Made by a program: the position numbers and the translations under genes. Source: Gammaproteobacteria bacterium (lineage in GTDB: Bacteria; Pseudomonadota; Gammaproteobacteria; Arenicellales; JAOTWM01). Taken from it: a DNA stretch of 30,346 nt. Location of the stretch: assembly GCA_029862885.1 (NCBI GenBank), contig JAOTWM010000012.1, positions 1 through 30,346 on the forward strand, read 5' to 3'. The notes under the pieces were generated by a model. That model searched no databases. It worked only from the letters and a program-made list of their open reading frames with translations, and was not told where the DNA came from. The stretch's first letter is position 1. Each line of letters starts with the position of its first letter. Positions 4,939 through 30,163 of the stretch are shown piece after piece.

Positions 4939-5238
4939 TTACTCGTTGAAAAGTATCAAAAATTGGCCACCGAAATCAAACGTCACTGTTGCGCTATCTT
5001 TACTGAATATATTCATACTAATTATTTTTCCTTCGCCAGATCCATAAGTGGAATGGTCAGGGCTAACCCAATCATCGATCTCCTTGTCTATCGGAATGCA
5101 AAGCAGCTCCTGCTGACCTTCCTCGTTTTTCCAATATCCCACCATAGTGGCAATGCCAAGCCAAAACACTTTTTCGAGCCTTTCACGATCTTTAGTCATA
5201 TAGCCTTCGAAATAATCAAAAATCGTTTCCTTTATCAA
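4939..5238 (-). CDS. Hypothetical small protein, possibly NTF2/SnoaL-like, in an AT-rich islet. It uses a TTG start and has no clear RBS.
   Basis: The 99-aa ORF has protein-like composition (DYFEGYMTKDRERLEKVFWLG...). It sits in a low-GC stretch (4720-5440) and may be decayed. Confidence 0.3.
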   Translation of the reverse strand: MIKETIFDYFEGYMTKDRERLEKVFWLGIATMVGYWKNEEGQQELLCIPIDKEIDDWVSPDHSTYGSGEGKIISMNIFSKDSATVTFDFGGQFLILFNE

Positions 5239-5436
5239 ATCATAGTCATTTATGTGCGGAGATCCAAATTCGCATTGTTAGTTCGCCTGCACATTTTGTA
5301 TCCTTACTTCGTGCTGCAAAATAATAGTGAGTGGCTGCTCAGAGTATTCAGCGGAGATATAAGTGTTGACAGTGCCTGCCAGCTCAAATCTTCCCTCGTG
5401 GTATGATTACAAATTCACTGTCGACGGATAAATCGG

Positions 5437-6060
5437 ATGCAGATACTCTATGGGGCCAAGGGCGCGGGTTCGGTTGCTCCTCAAGCCTTGCTAACCCATC
5501 TAGAAGTGCCATTCGAGCTAAAGCTGATTAGCTTTGACGCAAACGAGCACCAGTCAGAGGCATTTCTTGCCGTCAACCCCCGGGGGCAGATCCCTGTGCT
5601 GGTTTTGGACGACAAAAGCGTCCTGACTGAATCGCTTGCCATCATGCTTCATGTCGCCGACAGCCACCTGTCCTCTGCATTGATTCCAGCACCGGGCAGT
5701 GCCGAGCGAGCCCAAGTGTATCGCTGGATGTCATTTACCGCGACGAATGTGTACGAGGGGCTCTTGCGTCTTCTATACCCAGATATGTACACGACCAACA
5801 GCGACCTGTCCAAAGTCGTAGAGTCGGCTGATCAGTATTTGAATTCAGCTTTTGGAATTCTCAATCAAGCGCTAAGTAAGGGGCCATGGTTGGTTGGAGG
5901 GCGTACGGGCGTCACCGATATCTATCTTGCGATGCTGCTGACTTGGTACCCTGATCAGCAGAGGCTATACGAAGTCTACACGAATCTGCAGCCGTCCTTG
6001 AAACAGACGTTGGCGCTCGAAGGTGTGACAAGGGTGTTTGAGGAAAATGAGTTGATCTAA
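5437..6060 (+). CDS. Glutathione S-transferase family protein
   Basis: Thioredoxin-like N-domain (QIPVLVLDD...ESLAIMLHV) and a helical C-domain. Length is 207 aa. Confidence 0.8.
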   Translation: MQILYGAKGAGSVAPQALLTHLEVPFELKLISFDANEHQSEAFLAVNPRGQIPVLVLDDKSVLTESLAIMLHVADSHLSSALIPAPGSAERAQVYRWMSFTATNVYEGLLRLLYPDMYTTNSDLSKVVESADQYLNSAFGILNQALSKGPWLVGGRTGVTDIYLAMLLTWYPDQQRLYEVYTNLQPSLKQTLALEGVTRVFEENELI

Positions 6061-6259
6061 CTTGTGGATGGGCGCATTGGTTTTTTCAAGGAAGTCAAAA
6101 TGTTGAAATGACCGATTTGAGTATTAAAGCGACTGTCACTTATTGCGATGCGAGTAACTAAATCGAAGATAGCAATGTTCGCCATGTTGCCGCACTATTA
6201 ACCGATCACCTCGTCGACCGTCTCGACGCTAGCCGAACTAGGCCAAGGAGTACGATTCG

Positions 6260-6745
6260 TTGAACTTTGGCTCAGCCTATTCGTCACCTGACGACAAAAG
6301 CTTCATCGCGAAGTATCGTGCCTGCTGCCATTGCGGCGCGGTGCGGTACGAAGTTCGCGCCGATCCGGTCGACGCCAAGATTTGTCATTGTAGCGATTGC
6401 CAGATATTGCACGGCGCGCCCATGCAGTGGGCCGCAATTTTCCACAAAGAGGATGTCAGGTTCGCAACTGGGGCTGAGCATTTGCGATTCTATAACAGCG
6501 TCCTCAACCGCCATGAAAGACTCGTGCCCTGTAAGGTGGCCTGCGCATTGTGCGGTACGCTAATCGCCGATGAAGGGCGAAATATGTGGCTGGCCTTTCC
6601 CACGCTTTTCGATTTCGGCGCGCCGCCACAGGTGCCCGAAGCGTTCAGGCCGACCTGTCACCTCTTCTACGGCATGCGGGTGATGGATATCGTCGATGAG
6701 TTGCCGAAATGGTCTGGCCACAAAGATAAATCGAGGCGACTTTGA
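6260..6745 (+). CDS. GFA-family (glutathione-dependent formaldehyde-activating / CENP-V-like) protein
   Basis: CHCGAVRYEV...CHCSDCQ...C zinc-binding pattern of the GFA domain. TTG start with an AAGGAG Shine-Dalgarno 9 nt upstream. Confidence 0.8.
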   Translation: MNFGSAYSSPDDKSFIAKYRACCHCGAVRYEVRADPVDAKICHCSDCQILHGAPMQWAAIFHKEDVRFATGAEHLRFYNSVLNRHERLVPCKVACALCGTLIADEGRNMWLAFPTLFDFGAPPQVPEAFRPTCHLFYGMRVMDIVDELPKWSGHKDKSRRL

Positions 6746-7871: not shown

Positions 7872-8232
7872 CCAACAGACAAGCATAAGCGGGTTTCGTT
7901 TTTGGAAGGGGCAAAACTACGATATGGGTTTTCCATAGCGTATCCGAAACTGCAAAAGGGTTTCGGCTTTAACCGAGCTGTTTATTCGGGTTTGAATCCA
8001 TGTCAGTGCTTTGGCCTTAATTTGTCAAGGTCTGAATCTGATCTTTCGATTCCGTTCGTTCAGTGCGATCTCATCTGATAGTTTGGGAAAGCGGCCATGC
8101 AACTGGTCGACCTATACGGCTGCAACTTGCCCGGAGCGGTCATTCGAGAAGATTCACTGGAGGGCGGTTCTCGGCACTTTTCGGAGGCTGGCTAGATTTG
8201 ATTGTTGGTTTCATTCGAGCGAACATCCGCTC

Positions 8233-9555
8233 ATGACTCCCGAGACTCATTTCGCTGAAAACGATGGCGTCAGCATCGCGTATCAAGTTTTCGGTGACGG
8301 CTCACAGGACCTGATATTCATACCGGGATGGTTATCGAATCTTGACATATTGTGGGAAGAGCCGAGGGTGGCTCGTTTCCTTCTGTCACTGGCGCGAATT
8401 TTTAGGGTTACTGTTATTGATAGACGCGGAACTGGGCTTTCCGATCGTGTCGCGCCCCCGACTCTAGAAGTTCAGATGGGCGATGTGACGGCGGTGATGG
8501 ATGCCGCAGGTTCCGAACGCGCAGCATTTCTCGGTAATTCCGAAGGCGGGAGTATGTGTGCGTTGTTCGCGGCGACCCATCCGGATCGAACAACGGCTCT
8601 AATTACGGTTGGTGGATATGCTAAATGGATAAAGTCTGACGATTATCCGTATGGAACGAAACCGAGTGAAGCTGAGCAGTGGTTTGAACAAGTTGAAAAC
8701 GAGTGGGGTGGTCCCATCGCAATCGACTTTATCTCACCGAGTTTGGCAAACGATGAAAAACACCGACACTGGTTGGCTAAATTTTACCGATCGAGTGCAA
8801 GCAAGGCGAACGCCATTGCAATGCTAAGAATGGGTGCGGATATTGACCTTCGAGCAATATTGCCGACCATCAATGTTCCAAGCTTGGTGCTTCAAGCCAA
8901 AGCCGACCTTACCAACTCATTGGATTCGGGTCGCGACCTCGCAAGCCGAATCCCAAATGCGAAACTTGTCGAAATGGAATGCAGAGATCACGTGCTATGG
9001 GGGGACTGCAGTGAAGTGATTATTGGTGAGATACAGAACTTTCTCGGCGAAAAACAGACGATTTCGGTCACTGATCGAGCATTAGCCACCGTATTGTTCA
9101 CTGACATAGTCGATTCAACACAACTTGCGAACGATTTGGGCGATGAAAAATGGAGCGATCTACTTGAGGGACATAATGAAGCGGTCAGAAGGCAGCTTGA
9201 AATATTCCGTGGCAACGAGGTAAAGACTACCGGTGACGGCTTTCATGCAACATTTGACGGGCCCGCTCGAGCAATCCAATGTGCAGCCTCGATACGAGAA
9301 GCGACACGTCAATTAGGTTTAAGTCTCCGAATTGGCATACATACTGGAGAATGTGAGATTCGTGGAGAATCACTTGAGGGGGTGGCGATTCACTTGGCGG
9401 CACGTGTATCAGGGATGGCTTCTGCCGGGGAAATTGTTGTGTCAAGAACAGTTAAGGACCTTGTTGCTGGGTCAGGAATTGAGTTTGAAGACTTTGGTGT
9501 TCATGCCCTTAAGGGAATCTCTGGTGAACAACAACTATTCAAGGTGGTGGCGTAG
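8233..9555 (+). CDS. Alpha/beta-hydrolase-fold domain fused to a class III adenylate/guanylate cyclase catalytic domain (LipJ/Rv1900c-type architecture).
   Basis: N-terminal half resembles alpha/beta hydrolases. C-terminal VLFTDIVDSTQLANDLGD...TTGDGFHATF...RIGIHTGE are cyclase CHD motifs. The start codon is uncertain; the frame is open back to 8011. Confidence 0.75.
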   Translation: MTPETHFAENDGVSIAYQVFGDGSQDLIFIPGWLSNLDILWEEPRVARFLLSLARIFRVTVIDRRGTGLSDRVAPPTLEVQMGDVTAVMDAAGSERAAFLGNSEGGSMCALFAATHPDRTTALITVGGYAKWIKSDDYPYGTKPSEAEQWFEQVENEWGGPIAIDFISPSLANDEKHRHWLAKFYRSSASKANAIAMLRMGADIDLRAILPTINVPSLVLQAKADLTNSLDSGRDLASRIPNAKLVEMECRDHVLWGDCSEVIIGEIQNFLGEKQTISVTDRALATVLFTDIVDSTQLANDLGDEKWSDLLEGHNEAVRRQLEIFRGNEVKTTGDGFHATFDGPARAIQCAASIREATRQLGLSLRIGIHTGECEIRGESLEGVAIHLAARVSGMASAGEIVVSRTVKDLVAGSGIEFEDFGVHALKGISGEQQLFKVVA

Positions 9556-9639: not shown

Positions 9640-10320
9640 ATGGCAACAATAAGACCCATGATCAAGGTTATCACCAACAAATACGCGTCCTCACCCTACA
9701 GTCGGAAAGGCATCATTGTGCTGGAGGAGAAGGGCCTACCCTATGAGCAGGAAAACATCGACCCGGATTTCCTGCCGGACGGGTTCGAGTCGATGAACCC
9801 CAACCTGCGGGCGTCCTTGTTGATCGATCAGGGCCAGATGATATTTGAGTCGGACAACATCGTAGACTATCTCTTGCGGACGTATCCGGGGGAGCGGTCA
9901 GCGGATGCGCCGGACCCGCCCCTGACCGAAACCATGACACGCCCGGATCACCACATCCACGATTCTATGATCCTGGTTACGATTGAAACTGTCCTGAATA
10001 GCGCGAATAACATATCATTTTTTGCCACTGGCGGAATCGACCCCGCGAAGATCGAGCCCTATGGGTGGATATGGGAACGGGACAAGGTCCGCATCGATTC
10101 CTGCATGACTTGGCTGGACCAGCCAGCAATACCCGAGGGATTTGCTCCTGGAGTTTTTTCCATCATGGATCTAAAAATGATGTGCGCGTTCCGGTGTTTA
10201 ACCCGATGCGCGAATGATGACTGGAACCCCGACTGGAGCAAATATCGAAATCTCGATTCGATTTATGCGTTTTATCGGGACCGACCCTCCATTGTGAAAA
10301 CTGACCCTGGGCTAGGATAG
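9640..10320 (+). CDS. GST N-terminal-domain (thioredoxin-like) family protein
   Basis: SPYSRKG...NPNLRASLLIDQGQMIFESDNIVDYL fits the GST_N fold. The C-terminal half is atypical. An alternative start lies at 9658. Confidence 0.6.
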   Translation: MATIRPMIKVITNKYASSPYSRKGIIVLEEKGLPYEQENIDPDFLPDGFESMNPNLRASLLIDQGQMIFESDNIVDYLLRTYPGERSADAPDPPLTETMTRPDHHIHDSMILVTIETVLNSANNISFFATGGIDPAKIEPYGWIWERDKVRIDSCMTWLDQPAIPEGFAPGVFSIMDLKMMCAFRCLTRCANDDWNPDWSKYRNLDSIYAFYRDRPSIVKTDPGLG

Positions 10321-12869: not shown

Positions 12870-13583
12870 TTAACAGCAAGCGCAAGCGACCGATCGCTCG
12901 GTCGGACCGCAGCACGCCTGTCGAGCTTGGCCTTGCTCCGGGTGACCCAGGTAGGTCTCGTCGGACAGGTAGAAGTTGGTGAACTTCTCCACAAAATCTT
13001 CTGCGACGGATTTCTTCGGCAGACCTGTGGCGAGTACATTCTGCTGCCACGCTTTGACCTTCGGGAACTCGGCCAAGAAGTCATAACCAGAGTGCTGCTG
13101 AATGATGGCCGCACGGTGCAGCAACGGCAACCATGCAATATCAACCATGCCAACCTTATCCCCCCTGAAGAATCGACCGTCACTCAGTCTCTTTTCGGCG
13201 GTTGCGAATGCCTCATTCAGCTTGGCGCTGCGCTCCACAAACGTGACTTGATCGGGGCTCCTCTGCGTCGAGCACTGGACAAGGTAGTTCTTTGTGGCCA
13301 GGTATGACCACGCCCGCTCTCGAGCCTTCTCGACGGGATCAGCAGGGAACAGCGGATCTCCGGCAGTCTCCTCGATGTACTCTACGATGGCATCGGATTC
13401 GTGAAGCGCGCGACCATCGTCGGTTATCAGGACCGGTACCTGGCCCAGCGGTGATATCTCAAGGAACCAATCGGGCTTGTCGCTGATATCGATATCCTCG
13501 ACCTCGTAGGGGACGTTCTTGGCCTCAAGCAGGGCCGTGATCCGCTGGACGAAAGGGCAAATTCCAGAGCTGACGATTTTCAT
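12870..13583 (-). CDS. Glutathione S-transferase (CPF, Grx-like type) with a Cys-rich C-terminal tail ...QACCGPTERSVACACC
   Basis: AGGAG Shine-Dalgarno 7 nt upstream. N-terminal ICPFVQR...GQVPVL...ESDAIVEYI GST_N fold. Six cysteines lie in the last 16 residues. Confidence 0.8.
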   Translation of the reverse strand: MKIVSSGICPFVQRITALLEAKNVPYEVEDIDISDKPDWFLEISPLGQVPVLITDDGRALHESDAIVEYIEETAGDPLFPADPVEKARERAWSYLATKNYLVQCSTQRSPDQVTFVERSAKLNEAFATAEKRLSDGRFFRGDKVGMVDIAWLPLLHRAAIIQQHSGYDFLAEFPKVKAWQQNVLATGLPKKSVAEDFVEKFTNFYLSDETYLGHPEQGQARQACCGPTERSVACACC

Positions 13584-21983: not shown

Positions 21984-22130
21984 GTGTCCGGAGATTTGGT
22001 CCGGGTGCAATGACAGAGTTTGATGCGAGTCCGCGGAGGTTCTGCGGTATAGGTTCGGAATGCCTATCCGGTGCGCTGCTGCTAATCATCGCAATGCGTA
22101 TGCCGAGCCGTTCGCAGCGTATCGAACACC

Positions 22131-22204
22131 AGCGAGATAGCTCAGCTAGGTAGAGCAACCGACTCATAATCGGTCCGTCGCAGGTTCAACTCCTGCTCTC
22201 AATT
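22131..22204 (+). tRNA. tRNA-Met(CAT)-like sequence. The D, anticodon and T arms are canonical, but the 3' acceptor strand pairs at only 5 of 7 positions. Probable pseudo-tRNA or att-site-modified tRNA.
   Basis: TAGCTCAGCTAGGTAGAGC D-arm. Anticodon stem ACCGA/TCGGT with loop CTCATAA. T-arm GCAGG TTCAACT CCTGC. Acceptor 5' AGCGAGA versus 3' TCTCAAT, with no encoded CCA. Confidence 0.55.
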
Positions 22205-22634
22205 GCCTTTGAAGCAATCTTGGAAATGGCGAAAGCCTGAATTTGTAAGTGAAGGCCCCCGTGGTTGGCATTGTTTACGGTTGTATTCGAACGCAATGTG
22301 AATCACAGCGGCTGCCGGGCCGGATAACGCTAGTTGCGCCGGCTGGCGGCGTACACGACAGCATTATGTAGCGCGCAAATTCGAATTGCGCTCACTACAG
22401 GAAGTGTCGCTACGTATCGTTCTCGGGTGCGCTTAAGTCGAGCGCCGGCGGTATTTCGCGCGGTGGTCGTGGGGCCGGATCTAAATTAGCCAATGGCAAA
22501 TACGGACGTGAAAAATGAAATACTAGCCGAGTCGGTATTGGCGGCCTGTAACGGGAACCGAGTAAGAAATCGTCATGCGGCCGGTGGATTGTTTCCGCTG
22601 GATTAATCAAGCAACCTTAATAGGGATTAGGACA

Positions 22635-23780
22635 ATGTTTGGAATTAAGCGAGTGGTGGTTGCGCGACATGAGCGTGGCCTATTGATCAAAAATCGGAAC
22701 GTACAGGAAGTGGTGCAGCCGGGAAACTATTGGGTTTTCGGGCCACGGACTCGGATCGAGACTTATGAGATCACCGTGCCGGAATTCGAACACGAATTAA
22801 CGGCATTTATCGTAAAGGATCGACAGCACCCGGCGCGGCGTTATTTCGACGTCGTTGAAATCGGGGACCGGCAAGTGGGCTTGGTCTATAAGGACAACAA
22901 ACTGGCCGATGTGTTATCGCCGGGTAGCCGCCGGCTGTACTGGAAAGGAATCGTCGATGTGCGCGTGGAAATCATCGATATCGATGAAGACTACACCGTG
23001 CCGAAGCCGGTCGTGGCTTTGCTGGCGCGCCAGCGGCCGGGCGTGTTTCCGGCCCAAGTCAAGGATTTCATCTGCGTAGCGGAAGTGGCAGATAAGTTTG
23101 TCGGCATGCTAATCGTAGATGGAGAGCTGGTGAAGACCCTGCAGCCGGGTTTGCATGCATACTGGAAGTTCAACCGGCGCATCGGTGTCGAGCAAATCGA
23201 TTTACGCTTGCAGAGCATGGAAGTGTCGGGTCAGGAAATGCTCACCAAAGACAAGGTAAGTCTGCGTGTGAACTTGTCGGCAACCTACCAGGTGGCCGAT
23301 CCGGTCAAGGCACGTTCGACGTTTCACAACTTCGTTGAGCAGTTGTACCGCGAGTTGCAGTTTGCCGTGCGCCAGGCGATTGCAGCACGTACGCTGGATG
23401 CTCTTTTGGGAAACAAGGATGAGCTTGACCGCAGCGTCTGCGCAACCGTCCGCGCCAAGGTCGGCGCCCATGGTTTGGAAGTACACGGCGTTGGCATCAA
23501 GGATGTGATCCTGCCGGGCGACATGAAGACCATCCTCAACCAAGTGGTTGAGGCGGAGAAGGTCGCGCAGGCGAACGTGATCAAGCGACGTGAAGAGACC
23601 GCGGCAACGCGGTCGGCGCTCAACACGGCGCGTCTTATGGACGAGAACCCGACCTTGTTTCGTCTGAAGGAACTCGAAGTGCTCGAGAAGGTGACGGAGA
23701 AGGTCGACCGGCTCACTGTATTCGGTGGGCTCGAAGGAGTCATGCAAGACGTCGTGAAGATCAACGTGCGTTCCGATTGA
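22635..23780 (+). CDS. SPFH/Band-7 (stomatin-prohibitin-flotillin-HflK/C) domain protein
   Basis: Core ...LTKDKVSLRVNLSATYQV.DP.KA... followed by ...GVGIKDVILPGDMKTILNQVVEAEK.AQANVIKRREE coiled-coil region. The tracker's start at 22575 is possible. Confidence 0.8.
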   Translation: MFGIKRVVVARHERGLLIKNRNVQEVVQPGNYWVFGPRTRIETYEITVPEFEHELTAFIVKDRQHPARRYFDVVEIGDRQVGLVYKDNKLADVLSPGSRRLYWKGIVDVRVEIIDIDEDYTVPKPVVALLARQRPGVFPAQVKDFICVAEVADKFVGMLIVDGELVKTLQPGLHAYWKFNRRIGVEQIDLRLQSMEVSGQEMLTKDKVSLRVNLSATYQVADPVKARSTFHNFVEQLYRELQFAVRQAIAARTLDALLGNKDELDRSVCATVRAKVGAHGLEVHGVGIKDVILPGDMKTILNQVVEAEKVAQANVIKRREETAATRSALNTARLMDENPTLFRLKELEVLEKVTEKVDRLTVFGGLEGVMQDVVKINVRSD

Positions 23781-23864
23781 TAGGCGCACATGATCGGCAA
23801 CGATTTTAATTTGGAAGGTCCGGGCAATAGGGCCCGGGCCGCCCCACGTAACCTGAATAGCATA

Positions 23865-24839
23865 ATGAAACCGCAATTGGCTCGCGAGATCATTGCTTGT
23901 CTGCCCAAAGGTCGAACGCATTTTCGATACTTTAAGGATCGCTATGCGTTCTATTTGCTGGCGTACGCCACCGGCCGTGGCCGCTCAATTTCCGAACTTA
24001 AGCTTTCACCGGTTCGACGATTGCTCGATAAACCCAGCGTAAAACAACTTATTGCCCGTCACGGCGATAATGTAATAAATCGATCTGACTTACTAAACTC
24101 GTGGATTGAACCGTCCGAACCGTTTGTTTTGGGATTGGGTATCTGGAACGGCAGTTCAAAGCATTGGCGCAATGCTCAAATATCGCGGCGCGGGGCAAAC
24201 TTGGTTTTGCAGCTCAACTTCACTAATCAGCATCAGGCCGAGTATTACCGTTTAGTGAAACCCCGGTCGACTGGTTATCTAAATGGATACGGCCATCCTG
24301 TGTTACGGGCGGGGCCGGGAAAATTTCACCGCGACACCTTGGCTTGGGCACGAATCGACCTCGATTTCGGCGCCGACGAAGCATTAATCGAGGAGATCCA
24401 GTCCGACTGGATTCGCTATGCTGATTGGGATTTACGCCCCGTGTTGAAGTGTCGGTATCGGGCGCGCCAATGTGGGTTGTGCAAGAATATTGATGGCAAG
24501 AAGCGCGACATCGCTCACTATTTGGAGCACACCCTCAAGCCGTACCGGGAAATATGGATCGAGGCGATGCTCGCCGCCACCATCGAATTCATAGCGGACG
24601 AATTGGGAATCGGGGCGATCTACTACCATACCCAGCGTTCGGGAGCCGCCCTCAAAAATATCCATTCTGGTTACCGCCAGCCGCCTCGGTCGCTATATTC
24701 CGATCTACCCCGCAAATTTTGCTTCCAATCCACAAATCGTCCGCCGGAATTTCTAGGGGCCGGTCGACACGGCGCCGGCAAGGCCAATAAATATCCTTGG
24801 TATTTATTGAGAGTCGCTGCAGCAAATACCACTAGCTAA
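23865..24839 (+). CDS. Conserved hypothetical protein coupled to the SPFH gene. No recognizable family; possibly a nuclease-like D..D/EEIQ motif.
   Basis: Long ORF with GC-typical codon use starting 10 nt after the SPFH stop. N-terminus may be at 23790 or 23865. Confidence 0.55.
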   Translation: MKPQLAREIIACLPKGRTHFRYFKDRYAFYLLAYATGRGRSISELKLSPVRRLLDKPSVKQLIARHGDNVINRSDLLNSWIEPSEPFVLGLGIWNGSSKHWRNAQISRRGANLVLQLNFTNQHQAEYYRLVKPRSTGYLNGYGHPVLRAGPGKFHRDTLAWARIDLDFGADEALIEEIQSDWIRYADWDLRPVLKCRYRARQCGLCKNIDGKKRDIAHYLEHTLKPYREIWIEAMLAATIEFIADELGIGAIYYHTQRSGAALKNIHSGYRQPPRSLYSDLPRKFCFQSTNRPPEFLGAGRHGAGKANKYPWYLLRVAAANTTS

Positions 24840-24858
24840 ATTTGGCTCCAGCAAATTC

Positions 24859-25515
24859 TTAAAGTTGCCGGCCGAGCCACCCGTCGCGCTGTTTAGTGGA
24901 TTTGCGATACAGCGCGGTAAATTCGGAGTCTATGGCCTGCTTGACTGCACCTAACCGCAACACGGCACTACTCCATGCGTCCAATTTCGGGTGGTCGCCA
25001 GGGTCTAAGAGCTGTCGTGCGGGTTTGAGAATGTCGAGCCGCGCAAATAAAGGTGCGAAGCACGCATCGACGAGGCCGGGTTCGGGTCCGTCGAAAAACA
25101 CGGCATCCGATTTTTTGTCCTCGAGGTAGTCAAACTTCTCGTCGAGATCGTACGCGGCGTCGTCGAACTCGGATTCGTCCGTTGCTGTAACGGCCCCAGA
25201 CAGATCCGCCAATACCGCCGCGCCGTACGCAATCATTGCTCGATGTCTGGCTCGTTGTAGCGGCTCCTCGGGCAATAGCGAATCCGACGCGATGTCGTTC
25301 AGGTACTCGTTGATGACTGCAGATTCAAAAACAATATGCTGGTCATCTATGCGCAGGATCGGGACCCGACCAAGCGGCGACACGTCCTCGAACCAGGGCG
25401 GTGGGTTAGTGATATCGATTATGGTTAGGCGATACGCAATGTCCTTAAGTCGCAACACGACTTCCGATGACTGCACGAACGGACAGAGCGCGATGCTGAT
25501 TAATTCCAAGTCCAT
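24859..25515 (-). CDS. Glutathione S-transferase (CPF, Grx-like type)
   Basis: N-terminal LCPFVQSSEVVL...GRVPIL...ESAVINEYL GST_N fold. Lies 35 bp downstream of the AAA gene on the same strand. Confidence 0.8.
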   Translation of the reverse strand: MDLELISIALCPFVQSSEVVLRLKDIAYRLTIIDITNPPPWFEDVSPLGRVPILRIDDQHIVFESAVINEYLNDIASDSLLPEEPLQRARHRAMIAYGAAVLADLSGAVTATDESEFDDAAYDLDEKFDYLEDKKSDAVFFDGPEPGLVDACFAPLFARLDILKPARQLLDPGDHPKLDAWSSAVLRLGAVKQAIDSEFTALYRKSTKQRDGWLGRQL

Positions 25516-25550
25516 GCGCTATTAACCCATGGCTACACCGCTTGGCAGCA

Positions 25551-27026
25551 TCAATGTGCCGGCACGGTGCGCCCGGAGGCCCACGATCGCAACGCGTTCA
25601 CCTGCTCTGCCATCACCACCGAAAGCGGTTGTGTGTCTTCGACTTCCTTTAGCACCAGTGCCGTATTCAGTGCCTCGTCCCGGGCGTGGGCGCGATACAG
25701 CGCGGAGACGACCGCTTGCTCCAATTCCGCACCGGAAAATCCATCACTCGCTTTGGCCAGCATGTCGAGATCGAACTTATCGGCATCGAGCGCGCGATTG
25801 CCAAGATGGATCTTCAGAATCAGCGCGCGGGTTTCGCGATCCGGTAAATCCACGAAAAATATTTCATCGAAGCGACCTTTGCGCACCAATTCCGGTGGCA
25901 ACAGCGAAATTTCATTGGCCGTCGCAACAATAAACACCGCGGATTTCTTTTCTGCCATCCAGGTCAACAGCGTTGCCAGGATCCGCCGTGCAGGGCCGTC
26001 GTCTTCTTGTCCCGCGATGCCTTTCTCGATTTCATCGATCCATAATATACACGGCGCCATGGTGTCCGCACTCTTCAGCGCTTCGCGCACATTGCGCTCG
26101 CTCTGGCCGTAGAACTTATTGAATATCGCTCCCATGTCCAAGCGCAACAGCGGTGCTCCGAATGCCCCGGCTACGGCGCGTGCCGCGAGGCTCTTGCCGC
26201 AGCCTTGCACTCCCAATAATAAGATGCCTTTGGGCGTATCCAATTGCGGATTACTGGATTTGCCCATAAATATATCGCGCCGGTTGGTAAGCCATTCCTT
26301 AAGTGCGTTTAAGCCACCGACCTCGGCGAATCGGCTCGTTTCATACTCAAACGTCAGGGTATTGTCACGATCGAGCAGATCGTACTTCGCTTTCATCACC
26401 CCGGGCAGGTCGGTGTGGGAGATCGCGCCGTCGTTAAAGATCGCCTTTCGAACCAGTCGCTGCGCGTCGCCGTGGGTAAGGCCCGAGAGGTTTTTAACCA
26501 ACAGCTTGGTGGCCTGCCGGTCCGCCTTGACACGCTGATTATTCTTCCCGGCGGCCCATTCATTGGCCGTGTCCACCACCATGCTTTTTAGCTCTTCCGG
26601 TGTCGGCAATCCGAGACCGAATTCAGCAGTGTAGTGCCTTAGTTCGCCGGGGATTTCGAGTTCGTGGCTAAGCAACACGATGCAGCGCTCGACGCTGGAA
26701 TGCTTTATAGCGATGTCTTTCAGCAGTCGGGTATGGACGGGCTCAGCAAGGAAATGATGATAATCCAGCAATACATAAATGCCGGGCTGGCTCTCTGCCT
26801 TAATGTGCTCCAATACGTCCTTAGGCTCGGCATGTTGGGCTTCGCCATCTATGTCATAGCGTGCGAAACGTAGACCTTCGGTTACGGACCACTTGAATAA
26901 GGGTTTGCCGAGACTTTCCGCGATTTCAATGAGTAGCGTTAGCACGCGTTGTTCTTCGTGCGATTCCACCACTACGATCGGGATCTTGGATTTGAGAATC
27001 AATGCCAAGTCGTGTCGGTTGTCCAT
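25551..27026 (-). CDS. AAA+ ATPase (classical clade) with an N-terminal domain of roughly 250 aa and unknown function
   Basis: Walker A GVQGCGKS, Walker B ILWIDEIE, sensor-1 and Arg-finger block VATANEISLLPPELVRKGRFDEIFFVDLPD. The start codon is 5 nt after the AceK stop. Confidence 0.85.
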   Translation of the reverse strand: MDNRHDLALILKSKIPIVVVESHEEQRVLTLLIEIAESLGKPLFKWSVTEGLRFARYDIDGEAQHAEPKDVLEHIKAESQPGIYVLLDYHHFLAEPVHTRLLKDIAIKHSSVERCIVLLSHELEIPGELRHYTAEFGLGLPTPEELKSMVVDTANEWAAGKNNQRVKADRQATKLLVKNLSGLTHGDAQRLVRKAIFNDGAISHTDLPGVMKAKYDLLDRDNTLTFEYETSRFAEVGGLNALKEWLTNRRDIFMGKSSNPQLDTPKGILLLGVQGCGKSLAARAVAGAFGAPLLRLDMGAIFNKFYGQSERNVREALKSADTMAPCILWIDEIEKGIAGQEDDGPARRILATLLTWMAEKKSAVFIVATANEISLLPPELVRKGRFDEIFFVDLPDRETRALILKIHLGNRALDADKFDLDMLAKASDGFSGAELEQAVVSALYRAHARDEALNTALVLKEVEDTQPLSVVMAEQVNALRSWASGRTVPAH

Positions 27027-27031
27027 ACTAA

Positions 27032-28834
27032 TTATCTAACCAACTGTTGGCTCTCCGGATAGATGCGCACGCTGGGCACTTTGTTCTGCCGAAGCTCATC
27101 CTGTAACTTTTGCCAATATTGGGTGCCCAACATGTTGCCGTGCGTGTTCCTAAAAACCCCGCGAAGATGTGCGTTTGGAATCCTTAACCCTACGCTGACT
27201 TCCTCGGGCAAAAATACTATGCCGTCGTCAAAGAACCATTCGGGAATTTCTTCGTCGCCGTCGATGCCATCGTTTCGTTCGTAAATCTTGACGTCCACAA
27301 ACGGTTCTAATGCATCGTAGTCAAACAAATATACCTTATGAAATTCACTGACACCGTAATTGCGTGCATCCAGGTCTTTATTGAATATATTCGCGGCCGC
27401 ATTATTCTTGATGCAATAGCCAAGATTTATCATTGCAGTCTCGGCGTCTTCCGGCGACGCGGTTTCCCAAAACACAGGCAAAGGTGTCATCCGGCGCTGA
27501 ACTATCAGATGTTTGAACACGACGCCCTCGTTCTGTAGCGCGACGGTCTCGCCGGCTTCGCGGACAAGCTCGTCCAGCAGTTCCTTGTCGAACCAGTCCT
27601 TGTCGAGTCTGACATCATAATAAATAATATTGTCCAGCATACTGCCGGTGCGGTTAATTTCGTGCACCCGGTTATACTTCTTTAACACCGATTCGATGCC
27701 CTCAAATTCTCCCCACTTGTAGTCTGCGGTGGGCTGGTCGCGGATTATCTTCAAGTTGTAAGCGGAGCACGGTGCGGAGAAGCCGATAGCCACGGTGCCA
27801 CGAAATCCAACTGCGGTTTGCAGCGTTTGATTTTCCCCGATCAATTCCTCCTTGAGTTCGCTCATTACTGCCAGTTTGCCCAGGTGGTTATAACCGATCG
27901 TAGAATAATGCAGACCCAGCGGCCTTTGCGGCATGATGCTGTGAAGAAATTCCGATAGTTCGTGATAATACAGGCTCGTTACATGAAAATTCGCAAGTGT
28001 GGAGCTGAAGATATTGTGGCCATCTGCGATGCGGTGCAGCACCGCATCGACATAAATACCATGATCATCGTTGAGCAGTGCAAGAATCAATGGCATGACA
28101 AACTCGTCCGTAAATATGATTCTGCCGACGATATACGCGCCGCGATTACGATAGAATCCGGCCTCGATCATTTGGATACAGCGAATCGTTCCGACCTGAC
28201 TCGGATTCGTGTTGATTACCTGGTTGATACGTTCGGTGACGAGTGTGGCATCTTCGGAAAGGTTGCGGTAAGGAATCGAAAAATTGGGACACTGTAAAAT
28301 TTCCGCCACTGTCGCGTTTTGTACTGCTTCGCCACCGGGGAATTCGCGGTAGATTTCGCTAACATATTCCCCGCTGGCCTCCACCGCTTGGCGGGACGAG
28401 TACTCAACCGGTCGCCACTCGTCCGGAGAGATCTTTCGGCGGACCGAGTGGTAATAGGCGTGCGCGAGGTCGGCCTCGTAACGCCCGTCGATGAGAATGA
28501 GATAGTGCTGCTCAACCTGGTCCCAGAGTTCTTCGCGTTCCGCAAAGATCGGAAAGTTGTCAATTAGGGTCGCGCTTAGCTGCGCAACGCTCGCGCTATA
28601 TAGTGAAAGACGCTGTTTACTCAGCGCGAGAGAAGTGCGCGGGTCGCGATTTTCGAATGCCTGTTTGGCGAGGTCCGGAATGCCGAGGAATTCCGAGTAA
28701 TATGTGTCGAATTCGTACAAGATCCATTGTGCTGACGACTCGGCCTGCGCCGACTCACCGTGCATCGATTTCAGCTGCTCGGCGTGGTCGACCACGCCGT
28801 CGGCTAGAGGGTTTGCTGGCTCCGGTGTGTGCAC
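27032..28834 (-). CDS. aceK: Isocitrate dehydrogenase kinase/phosphatase (AceK) homolog
   Basis: Collinear similarity to E. coli AceK as recalled from memory, e.g. RRMTPLPVFWE...AAANIFNKDL...NYGVSEFHKVYLFDYD versus RRMVPLNIWLE...AAANIFPGDM...NFGVTRHGRVVFYDYD. GTG start at 28834; alternative ATG at 28765. Confidence 0.85.
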   Translation of the reverse strand: MHTPEPANPLADGVVDHAEQLKSMHGESAQAESSAQWILYEFDTYYSEFLGIPDLAKQAFENRDPRTSLALSKQRLSLYSASVAQLSATLIDNFPIFAEREELWDQVEQHYLILIDGRYEADLAHAYYHSVRRKISPDEWRPVEYSSRQAVEASGEYVSEIYREFPGGEAVQNATVAEILQCPNFSIPYRNLSEDATLVTERINQVINTNPSQVGTIRCIQMIEAGFYRNRGAYIVGRIIFTDEFVMPLILALLNDDHGIYVDAVLHRIADGHNIFSSTLANFHVTSLYYHELSEFLHSIMPQRPLGLHYSTIGYNHLGKLAVMSELKEELIGENQTLQTAVGFRGTVAIGFSAPCSAYNLKIIRDQPTADYKWGEFEGIESVLKKYNRVHEINRTGSMLDNIIYYDVRLDKDWFDKELLDELVREAGETVALQNEGVVFKHLIVQRRMTPLPVFWETASPEDAETAMINLGYCIKNNAAANIFNKDLDARNYGVSEFHKVYLFDYDALEPFVDVKIYERNDGIDGDEEIPEWFFDDGIVFLPEEVSVGLRIPNAHLRGVFRNTHGNMLGTQYWQKLQDELRQNKVPSVRIYPESQQLVR

Positions 28835-28963
28835 GGCCAGCTACAATCGATTGCTATTTGTATTTACGAACATGAGCTCGGCTCGACAATTGATGGATAC
28901 GGTAGAACATAACGTCAGAATAACATCGCCCGGCATCAGTCCCAATAGCCGGGCCGAATTGTT

Positions 28964-30163
28964 GTGGAGCGCCAGGCGTTGAAACGCAACGTTATCTTAC
29001 TGGCGATCTGCCAAGCTCTCATGATGACAGGAAGTTCGCTGTTGGTCGCGAGTATCGCGCTCATTGGCCTCGCCCTCGCGCCACATCCAGGCCTCGCCAC
29101 ATTGCCGTTGGCGTTTCACTTCCTAGCGGTGATGGCCACTACATTTCCAGCGTCTATGGCTATGAAGAAAATTGGCCGCAAGAATGGTTTTATGCTGGGC
29201 TTGATTGCCGCAATCATTGGTGCATCGGTCTGCGCATACTCAATATACATCGGCCACTTCGTCGGTTATTGTATCGGCGTTGTGTCGATGGGGGTGTTTA
29301 ATGCGTTCGGACAATACTACCGGTTCGCGGCGGCCGACGTTGCGACGGTGGATTATCGCAGCCGGGCGATTTCGCTAGTACTAGCAGGCGGTCTTGTCGC
29401 GGCGTTTGCCGGGCCCAACCTCGCCAGCTTCACGCGGGACCTGGTTGCCAATGCCGAGTTTGCCGGTGGCTACGGGAGCCTCGTGTTGATCTATCTGATC
29501 TCGTTGTGGGTGGTGTCGCAATTACGTATTCCCACACCCGGAACGGAAGAACGATCCGAAGGCGGTCGCCCGTTGTTAGCGATCGCCCGCCAACCGGCAT
29601 ATTGGACCGCGGTGTTGTGCGCGATGACGGCCTACGGTTCGATGAATCTGCTGATGGCGGCCACGCCGCTGGCAATGCAACACTACGGACATCCGTTTTC
29701 ATCCGCCGCACTGGTGTTCGAGTGGCATATCGTCGGTATGTATCTCCCGTCCTTTTTTACTGGGCACCTCATTCATCGTGTCGGTGTTGTCAAGGTAATG
29801 ATGTCCGGTGCGGTTATTTTGATTTTGAGTGCACTGGTTAACATTTTTGCCGGCAACAGTGTCAGTGCTTTTTTGATCGCGTTGGCTCTGCTGGGGTTAG
29901 GTTGGAATTTTCTGTTTGTAGGCGGCACGACGCAGTTGACCACAACCTATACGCCCCCGGAAAAAGCCAAGGCCCAAGGCTTGAACGATATGCTGGTATT
30001 TGCGACCGTGGCGTGTACCGCATTGTTTTCCGGTTTGTTGCACTACACGGTAGGGTGGAGCGTACTCAATTACGGCGTGATCCCAGTCGTAGTGCTGGCT
30101 GCGATTGCGGTATTGTACGCGTCGCGTACCCGCTCTGTAGCAATTACGAATCCAGGCACGTAG
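28964..30163 (+). CDS. MFS-family transporter
   Basis: About 12 predicted TM helices and an MFS-like loop motif (GRKNGFMLG). GTG start; alternative ATG at 29021. Confidence 0.75.
   Translation: MERQALKRNVILLAICQALMMTGSSLLVASIALIGLALAPHPGLATLPLAFHFLAVMATTFPASMAMKKIGRKNGFMLGLIAAIIGASVCAYSIYIGHFVGYCIGVVSMGVFNAFGQYYRFAAADVATVDYRSRAISLVLAGGLVAAFAGPNLASFTRDLVANAEFAGGYGSLVLIYLISLWVVSQLRIPTPGTEERSEGGRPLLAIARQPAYWTAVLCAMTAYGSMNLLMAATPLAMQHYGHPFSSAALVFEWHIVGMYLPSFFTGHLIHRVGVVKVMMSGAVILILSALVNIFAGNSVSAFLIALALLGLGWNFLFVGGTTQLTTTYTPPEKAKAQGLNDMLVFATVACTALFSGLLHYTVGWSVLNYGVIPVVVLAAIAVLYASRTRSVAITNPGT

Follow-up and report, generated by a model that had tools for sequence, protein, structure and literature searches.

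The locus described here raises the question of whether three genes that lie head-to-tail on one strand form a functional module or a string of unrelated neighbors. Their products are a homolog of AceK, the kinase/phosphatase of isocitrate dehydrogenase, a AAA+ ATPase and a glutathione transferase (GST). The genes occupy the minus strand, in the order AceK, AAA and GST, of contig JAOTWM010000012.1 from a gammaproteobacterial assembly (GCA_029862885.1); this 30,346-nt contig was analyzed in full and is referred to below as the window. The initial annotation read the pairing of a kinase/phosphatase with an AAA unfoldase as a regulatory or remodelling module. That proposal was not borne out, as the adjacency was seen neither at about 80 other AceK loci nor in other AAA lineages. 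The locus is best explained as three genes of independent function that a rearrangement brought together in one narrow lineage and that are probably co-transcribed there, and we consider this explanation likely.

The AceK-AAA-GST triad with identical gaps was present in the window and at only three related loci, L007, L009 and L016. L007 and L009 shared 99.9% nucleotide identity, and the tblastn statistics of L016 equaled those of L009; the three loci represent one species. Between the window and these loci, the triad was 84.5% identical at the nucleotide level. The flanks were syntenic, with remnants of a divergent major facilitator superfamily (MFS) gene on one side and a DAO/GCV_T gene on the other. 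The shared locus of the two sister species amounts to a single evolutionary event. The adjacency is therefore nearly, but not strictly, restricted to the genome of the window, as it extends to a single sister species at the same locus.

The AceK side of the comparison was based on two scans. A search of genome contigs with the single protein yielded 3 AceK loci, and an alignment-based metagenome scan yielded 80, with 51–89% identity. Among the 80 metagenome loci, tblastn detected an adjacent AAA gene at L016 only. AceK stood alone, with no AAA gene, at L012 and L014 (AceK identity 65%) and at L013 (61%), which lies on a 5.2-Mb contig. One sample contained both an AAA locus (L002) and an AceK locus (L012), on separate contigs. 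The AceK neighbors varied: an FAA hydrolase was found at 16 loci and a 141-aa membrane protein at 11, followed by AHSA1, EamA, ApbA and HpcH proteins. The E. coli proteins AceA, AceB and Icd had no tblastn match in the window, which upheld the earlier report that aceA and aceB are missing there, and no homologs of the three proteins were found in the flanks of about 87–95 related loci. Stand-alone AceK is the norm for the subfamily to which the window protein belongs, named KDRNDDA here after the active-site signature described below. The initial annotation was thus right that this gene lies outside a glyoxylate operon, but the position is not an anomaly, since it is the rule in the subfamily. 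No explicit statement on the operon context of aceK in Pseudomonas was found in the literature searched.

On the AAA side, none of the eight other AAA lineages carried AceK within 5–6 kb of the AAA gene. At L015 (AAA identity 71%) and L001/L002 (69%), a divergently oriented Sel1/peptidoglycan-binding gene lay beside the AAA gene. L008 (60%), L098, L099 and L100 shared the arrangement divergent Rrf2, AAA, Sel1-repeat and ArgA (N-acetylglutamate synthase), with the AAA orthologs at about 5001–6479 in each. At L003–L006 (57%, Woeseiaceae type), the AAA gene was preceded by a 425-aa unknown gene and followed by a gene for an FHA protein. At L003 and L005 (4700–8990), the 425-aa protein had no Pfam match and its gene ended 12–24 nt before the AAA gene. 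The 425-aa gene, AAA and FHA may constitute a different conserved AAA partnership. The 425-aa protein was also considered as a cryptic AceK relative, and this was rejected (BLASTP, E ≥ 1). The Rrf2/Sel1/ArgA context may say more about the function of the AAA family than AceK does.

Within the cluster, the AceK gene (27032–28834, minus strand) ends in TAA, which is followed by a 5-nt spacer, TTAGT (27027–27031), without a strong Shine-Dalgarno sequence, and then by the ATG of the AAA gene (25551–27026). The 5-nt distance first read from the window was thereby confirmed. The AAA stop is separated by 35 nt (25516–25550) from the ATG of the GST gene (24859–25515), also as first described. In L007, the 5-nt spacing was kept with different junction letters, and the 35-nt spacing was conserved. 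The cluster promoter is presumed to lie in the 129 bp (28835–28963) that separate AceK from the divergent MFS gene, although no consensus sigma-70 site was found there. No terminator-like site was found between the cluster genes on the minus strand, the 35-nt spacer included, and a promoter and terminator scan of positions 24300–29300 gave site counts not above those of shuffled controls. Because the spacing is tight and the genes are co-directional, the three genes are probably co-transcribed, with putative translational coupling of AAA to AceK. Ratios of nonsynonymous to synonymous substitution rates (dN/dS) between the window and the sister species were 0.08 for AceK, 0.06 for AAA and 0.18 for GST, at a dS of about 0.77. 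These ratios indicate strong purifying selection on each of the genes.

Several observations weigh against three independent genes and speak for a recently evolved functional pair, in which the AAA+ remodeller acts on AceK and isocitrate dehydrogenase (ICDH), for instance by unfolding phospho-ICDH or taking AceK-ICDH complexes apart, or is itself an AceK substrate, and in which coupling has been selected. The 5-nt and 35-nt spacings were retained across a dS of about 0.77 despite changes in the junction sequence, and an obvious Shine-Dalgarno sequence is missing at the AAA start; on these two grounds, AAA expression is suggested to be tied to AceK in the lineage of the window and its sister species. 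The purifying selection on all three genes fits such a pair, and operon membership alone may be compatible with a recent functional link. The AAA-side sample was small, at eight lineages. The same gammaproteobacterial assemblies from marine sediment are rich in both families. A second lineage with looser proximity was also found: L049 and L055 (AceK identity 56–57%) carried an AAA homolog 1.5–2.2 kb downstream of AceK, in convergent orientation.

Nevertheless, we regard the functional pair as unlikely. The adjacency was found at 0 of about 80 other AceK-subfamily loci and in 0 of the 8 other AAA lineages. The genes of L049 and L055 are convergent and therefore not co-transcribed, and the two loci are syntenic with 76% nucleotide identity, which makes them one lineage. 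About 595 kb of AceK flank was surveyed; if one AAA gene is assumed per genome of about 4 Mb, chance alone would yield about 0.15 co-localizations. One additional, non-co-transcribed lineage is weakly above this expectation, not significant and compatible with chance. Neither protein of the window has acquired a lineage-specific domain or insertion: full-length identity to unlinked orthologs was 57–71% for AAA and 56–65% for AceK. At L049 (5971–11428) and L055 (5902–9979), AceK is translationally overlapped by an unknown gene of 341 aa and 326 aa, respectively; a Dioxygenase_C gene comes next and the convergent AAA gene after it, so that other genes separate AceK from AAA. L049 additionally encodes a caspase-domain (Peptidase_C14) protein beyond the AAA homolog.

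The AceK homolog comprises 600 aa from a GTG start. Some gene callers and databases begin it at an internal ATG; the longer form is supported by the sister species, as L007 has ATG at the position of the GTG and ATC in place of the internal ATG. Pfam identified both domains, AceK_regulatory (PF20423; 3e-62, residues 35–329) and AceK_kinase (PF06315; 4e-59, residues 337–593). Residues 35–596 were collinear with residues 10–567 of E. coli AceK (PDB 3EPS) over about 560 residues, in agreement with the initial assignment, and identity between the two proteins was 24.5%. The score against the NCBIfam equivalog model NF002804 was 442.4 bits, under the cutoff of 488. Among 1.84 billion cluster representatives searched, 983 were AceK-related, and their identities to the window AceK were bimodally distributed. 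Among representatives at least 45% identical, 11 of 12 carried the signature K-D-R-N-D-D-A; the remaining representatives were at most 31% identical, and K-D-K-N-D-D-E was found in 59 of 72. The KDRNDDA sequences are widespread in uncultured marine Gamma- and Alphaproteobacteria. One deep member, from a Chromatiales symbiont, is annotated as "hypothetical protein", and none of the deep representatives was found to be named or to come from a cultured organism. Since the identity distribution is bimodal and the active-site signatures differ, the window AceK is, by its sequence, a member of a distinct, well-separated and uncharacterized AceK subfamily. The representative search also recovered AceK-like regions of about 500–570 residues (25–33% identity) inside giant predicted proteins of 1,000–6,000 aa, including P0252, P0257, P0258, P0263, P0278, P0284, P0330 and P0383.

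The residues documented as catalytic in AceK are the triad D457/N462/D475 together with K336 and D477 (PMC3747045, PMC6591243). Their counterparts in the window protein, K362, D487, N492, D505 and D507 (E. coli K336, D457, N462, D475 and D477), were invariant in the window AceK and 40 subfamily members. Residue conservation was thus complete at the catalytic positions and incomplete around them: the window AceK differs from canonical AceK at two first-shell residues, K461 and E478, which are replaced by R491 and A508 and are fixed in this form across the subfamily. The kinase chemistry of the subfamily is probably preserved, judging from these alignments. E478 is reported to be important yet not indispensable in AceK (PMC6591243), so its replacement by alanine could shift phosphatase or metal behavior.

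These differences bear on a further possibility, namely that KDRNDDA AceK does not regulate ICDH and acts on another protein substrate, at which the neighboring AAA and GST genes would hint. The low identity to the E. coli protein, the score of 442 against the 488-bit equivalog cutoff and the fixed K461R and E478A substitutions, at positions held by K and E in 59 of 72 other representatives, are in line with such a change of target. So are the absence of the subfamily from positions beside aceA, aceB or icd and the lack of a named or cultured member among its deep representatives. However, the protein is fully collinear with AceK over both domains, its catalytic triad, K336 and D477 are invariant, and the loop after the D475/D477 motif is of similar length. 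The K-to-R exchange is conservative, and E478 itself is reported not to be essential (PMC6591243). The variable neighbors of the subfamily point to no alternative target, and a location outside the ace operon is not itself evidence of a new one. We find a non-ICDH target improbable.

The 491-aa AAA protein was recognized by Pfam through its AAA domain (6e-32) and AAA_lid_3, and it displays the features of classical-clade AAA+ proteins, as initially annotated. The N-terminal part had been left unassigned, and Pfam was likewise silent over its approximately 260 aa. The protein consists of two modules. Residues 229–491 (25551–26342, minus strand) form an active classical-clade AAA+ module plus lid, with Walker A GVQGCGKS at 272–279, Walker B D331/E332, an aromatic pore loop (K304-F-Y-G307), sensor-1 N371 and arginine fingers R382/R385. 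Its best PDB matches were the D2 domains of VAT and p97. Residues 1–228 (26343–27026, minus strand) form a module, starting at residue 3, with an AAA+ fold and without Walker A or Walker B; ESHEEQRV occupies the P-loop position. The identity of this pseudo-D1 to any AAA+ protein was 6–16%, and a comparison of the two halves as diverged copies gave a weak match (hhalign probability 2.6%, E = 0.017). On structural grounds, the N-terminal domain is a degenerate, nucleotide-free AAA+ module. The motifs and fold suggest that the protein is presumably a hexameric substrate-threading remodeller.

The AAA family is very large and widely distributed, with at least 8,000 scored homologs. Among the 120 matches listed, all covered 99–100% of the query at 56–91% identity. 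A full-length phage match that includes the N-terminal module was found in phrog_8638 (residues 4–490, E = 9e-113; 28–32% identity over 97–99% coverage), and 44 phage records covered at least 80% of the AAA protein. Proteins with this architecture, such as that of phage record KF614509.1 (40557–42071), were present in phages of Rhizobium, Mycobacterium, Aeromonas, Vibrio and Pseudomonas as well as in a Streptococcus satellite.

The phage homologs, together with matches of the AAA domain to IetA/IteA models (PADLOC, 2e-25; NCBIfam, 82 bits) and a variable segment with a tRNA gene just downstream of the cluster, could be taken for an anti-phage or mobile-element module, such as an IetA-like AAA protein with a kinase effector on an island. 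However, the IteA score of 81.6 bits is far from the cutoff of 510 and stems from the AAA module only. An IetS-like protease partner is not present, and neither AceK nor GST gave a PADLOC hit. AAA orthologs of several lineages reside in the stable chromosomal Rrf2-AAA-Sel1-ArgA context, and the flanks of the triad are syntenic between species. The defense-system reading was accordingly rejected as highly improbable, its PADLOC matches being confined to the AAA-domain level.

The third gene encodes an omega-class-like GST of 218 aa with GST_N and GST_C domains. It combines a thioredoxin-like N-terminal domain, carrying the catalytic Cys in a C-P-F motif at residues 11–13, with a helical C-terminal domain, consistent with its first description as a CPF-type GST on the same strand as AAA. 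The best solved relatives were omega-class GSTs and pyrimidodiazepine synthase (E = 5e-24 to 3e-20). The protein was 81% identical in L007, and outside the triad loci no GST was found beside AceK or AAA among the surveyed loci. The window encodes four GSTs in total, among them a CPF paralog with 31% identity at 12870–13583. The GST is probably a bystander in the cluster. Glutathione-related genes are unusually numerous in this contig: those at 5437–6060, 6260–6745, 9640–10320 and 12870–13583 encode the three further GSTs and one glutathione-dependent formaldehyde-activating (GFA) protein.

Beyond the cluster, the 2.8-kb segment at 22106–24871 contains a tRNA-Met gene (22131–22204), a gene for a 401-aa SPFH/Band-7 protein (22575–23780) and a gene for a 349-aa protein without a family match (23790–24839). 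The segment is missing in the sister species except for a 92-aa open reading frame (L007, 9360–9638) that matches the 349-aa protein at its N-terminal end, and no repeats flanking it were found. The Rfam search returned tRNA-Met, which lies outside the cluster, and nothing else. The divergent MFS transporter gene (28964–30163, plus strand) is intact in the window. Its counterparts in L007 (4695–5257), L009 and L016 carry an internal deletion, so that only residues 2–102 and 297–399 match and the stretch corresponding to window positions 29272–29901 is missing; the MFS gene of the sister species is probably a pseudogene. The end of the contig carries an IS21-type pair, an IstB-like ATPase (400–1155) and a transposase with rve and Mu-transposase C domains (1173–2747). 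A 514-aa protein encoded at 8011–9555 fuses an alpha/beta-hydrolase to a class III adenylate/guanylate cyclase catalytic domain.

The preferred explanation, a recent string of independent genes, implies that the three genes were joined by a rearrangement in an ancestor shared by two closely related Arenicellales-type gammaproteobacterial species. AceK would then most likely phosphorylate and dephosphorylate an ICDH encoded elsewhere in the genome, and it probably still acts on ICDH because its protein-kinase-like catalytic core is intact. The AAA protein would act as a hexameric threading remodeller whose ancestral context is Rrf2-AAA-Sel1-ArgA, and the GST would be one of several omega-like Cys-GSTs of this genome. 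As a regulatory module the cluster carries little weight, since the linkage is local and recent. Specialists may find use in the division of AceK into a canonical group and the KDRNDDA subfamily with fixed K461R and E478A, and in a large family of approximately 490-aa AAA+ proteins, cellular and phage-encoded, that combine a nucleotide-free module with an active one. We think it unlikely that KDRNDDA AceK and the pseudo-D1 AAA+ protein are a functional pair in the Arenicellales lineage or that the subfamily has a non-ICDH target. Were either the case, it would open a first way into the function of two large uncharacterized families; in a functional pair, the AAA protein might take apart or reset complexes of AceK with its target, or AceK might control it by phosphorylation.

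Each of the three genes belongs to a known kind, and arranged together they do not make up a novel type of system. The window AceK shares with E. coli AceK (PDB 3EPS, 3LCB) the two-domain architecture of a regulatory and a kinase-like domain, and the Gly-rich loop (G317/G320), K336, the catalytic triad and D477 are all conserved. Unlike the E. coli protein, it carries about 25 extra residues at its N-terminus and is encoded outside an aceBAK operon. The GST resembles omega-class GSTs and pyrimidodiazepine synthase; it differs from them in being bacterial and shorter (218 aa), with several paralogs in the contig. The AAA family is presumably akin to Ycf46, an AAA protein of cyanobacteria and plastids, in length and in the C-terminal position of the AAA module, which we treat as a lead only. 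Some sources label its members "SpoVK/Ycf46/Vps4 family AAA+-type ATPase", but this is a generic COG label only. Ycf46 (Synpcc7942_0417) has been described as a KaiC-interacting, stress-induced and circadian-linked cyanobacterial ATPase of unknown mechanism (bioRxiv 10.1101/2025.07.21.665879). The phrog_8638 AAA proteins of Rhizobium phage L338C and Mycobacterium phage Firecracker share the full-length architecture of the window protein, in a phage context and at low identity. Finally, as in the type II tandem AAA+ proteins (Cdc48/p97/VAT, Rix7/NVL and Pex1/6), each chain of the window protein contains two AAA+-fold modules. Unlike Cdc48/p97, it comprises only 491 aa, its D1 lacks Walker A and Walker B, and it has no N-terminal double-psi-barrel domain for substrates and adaptors.

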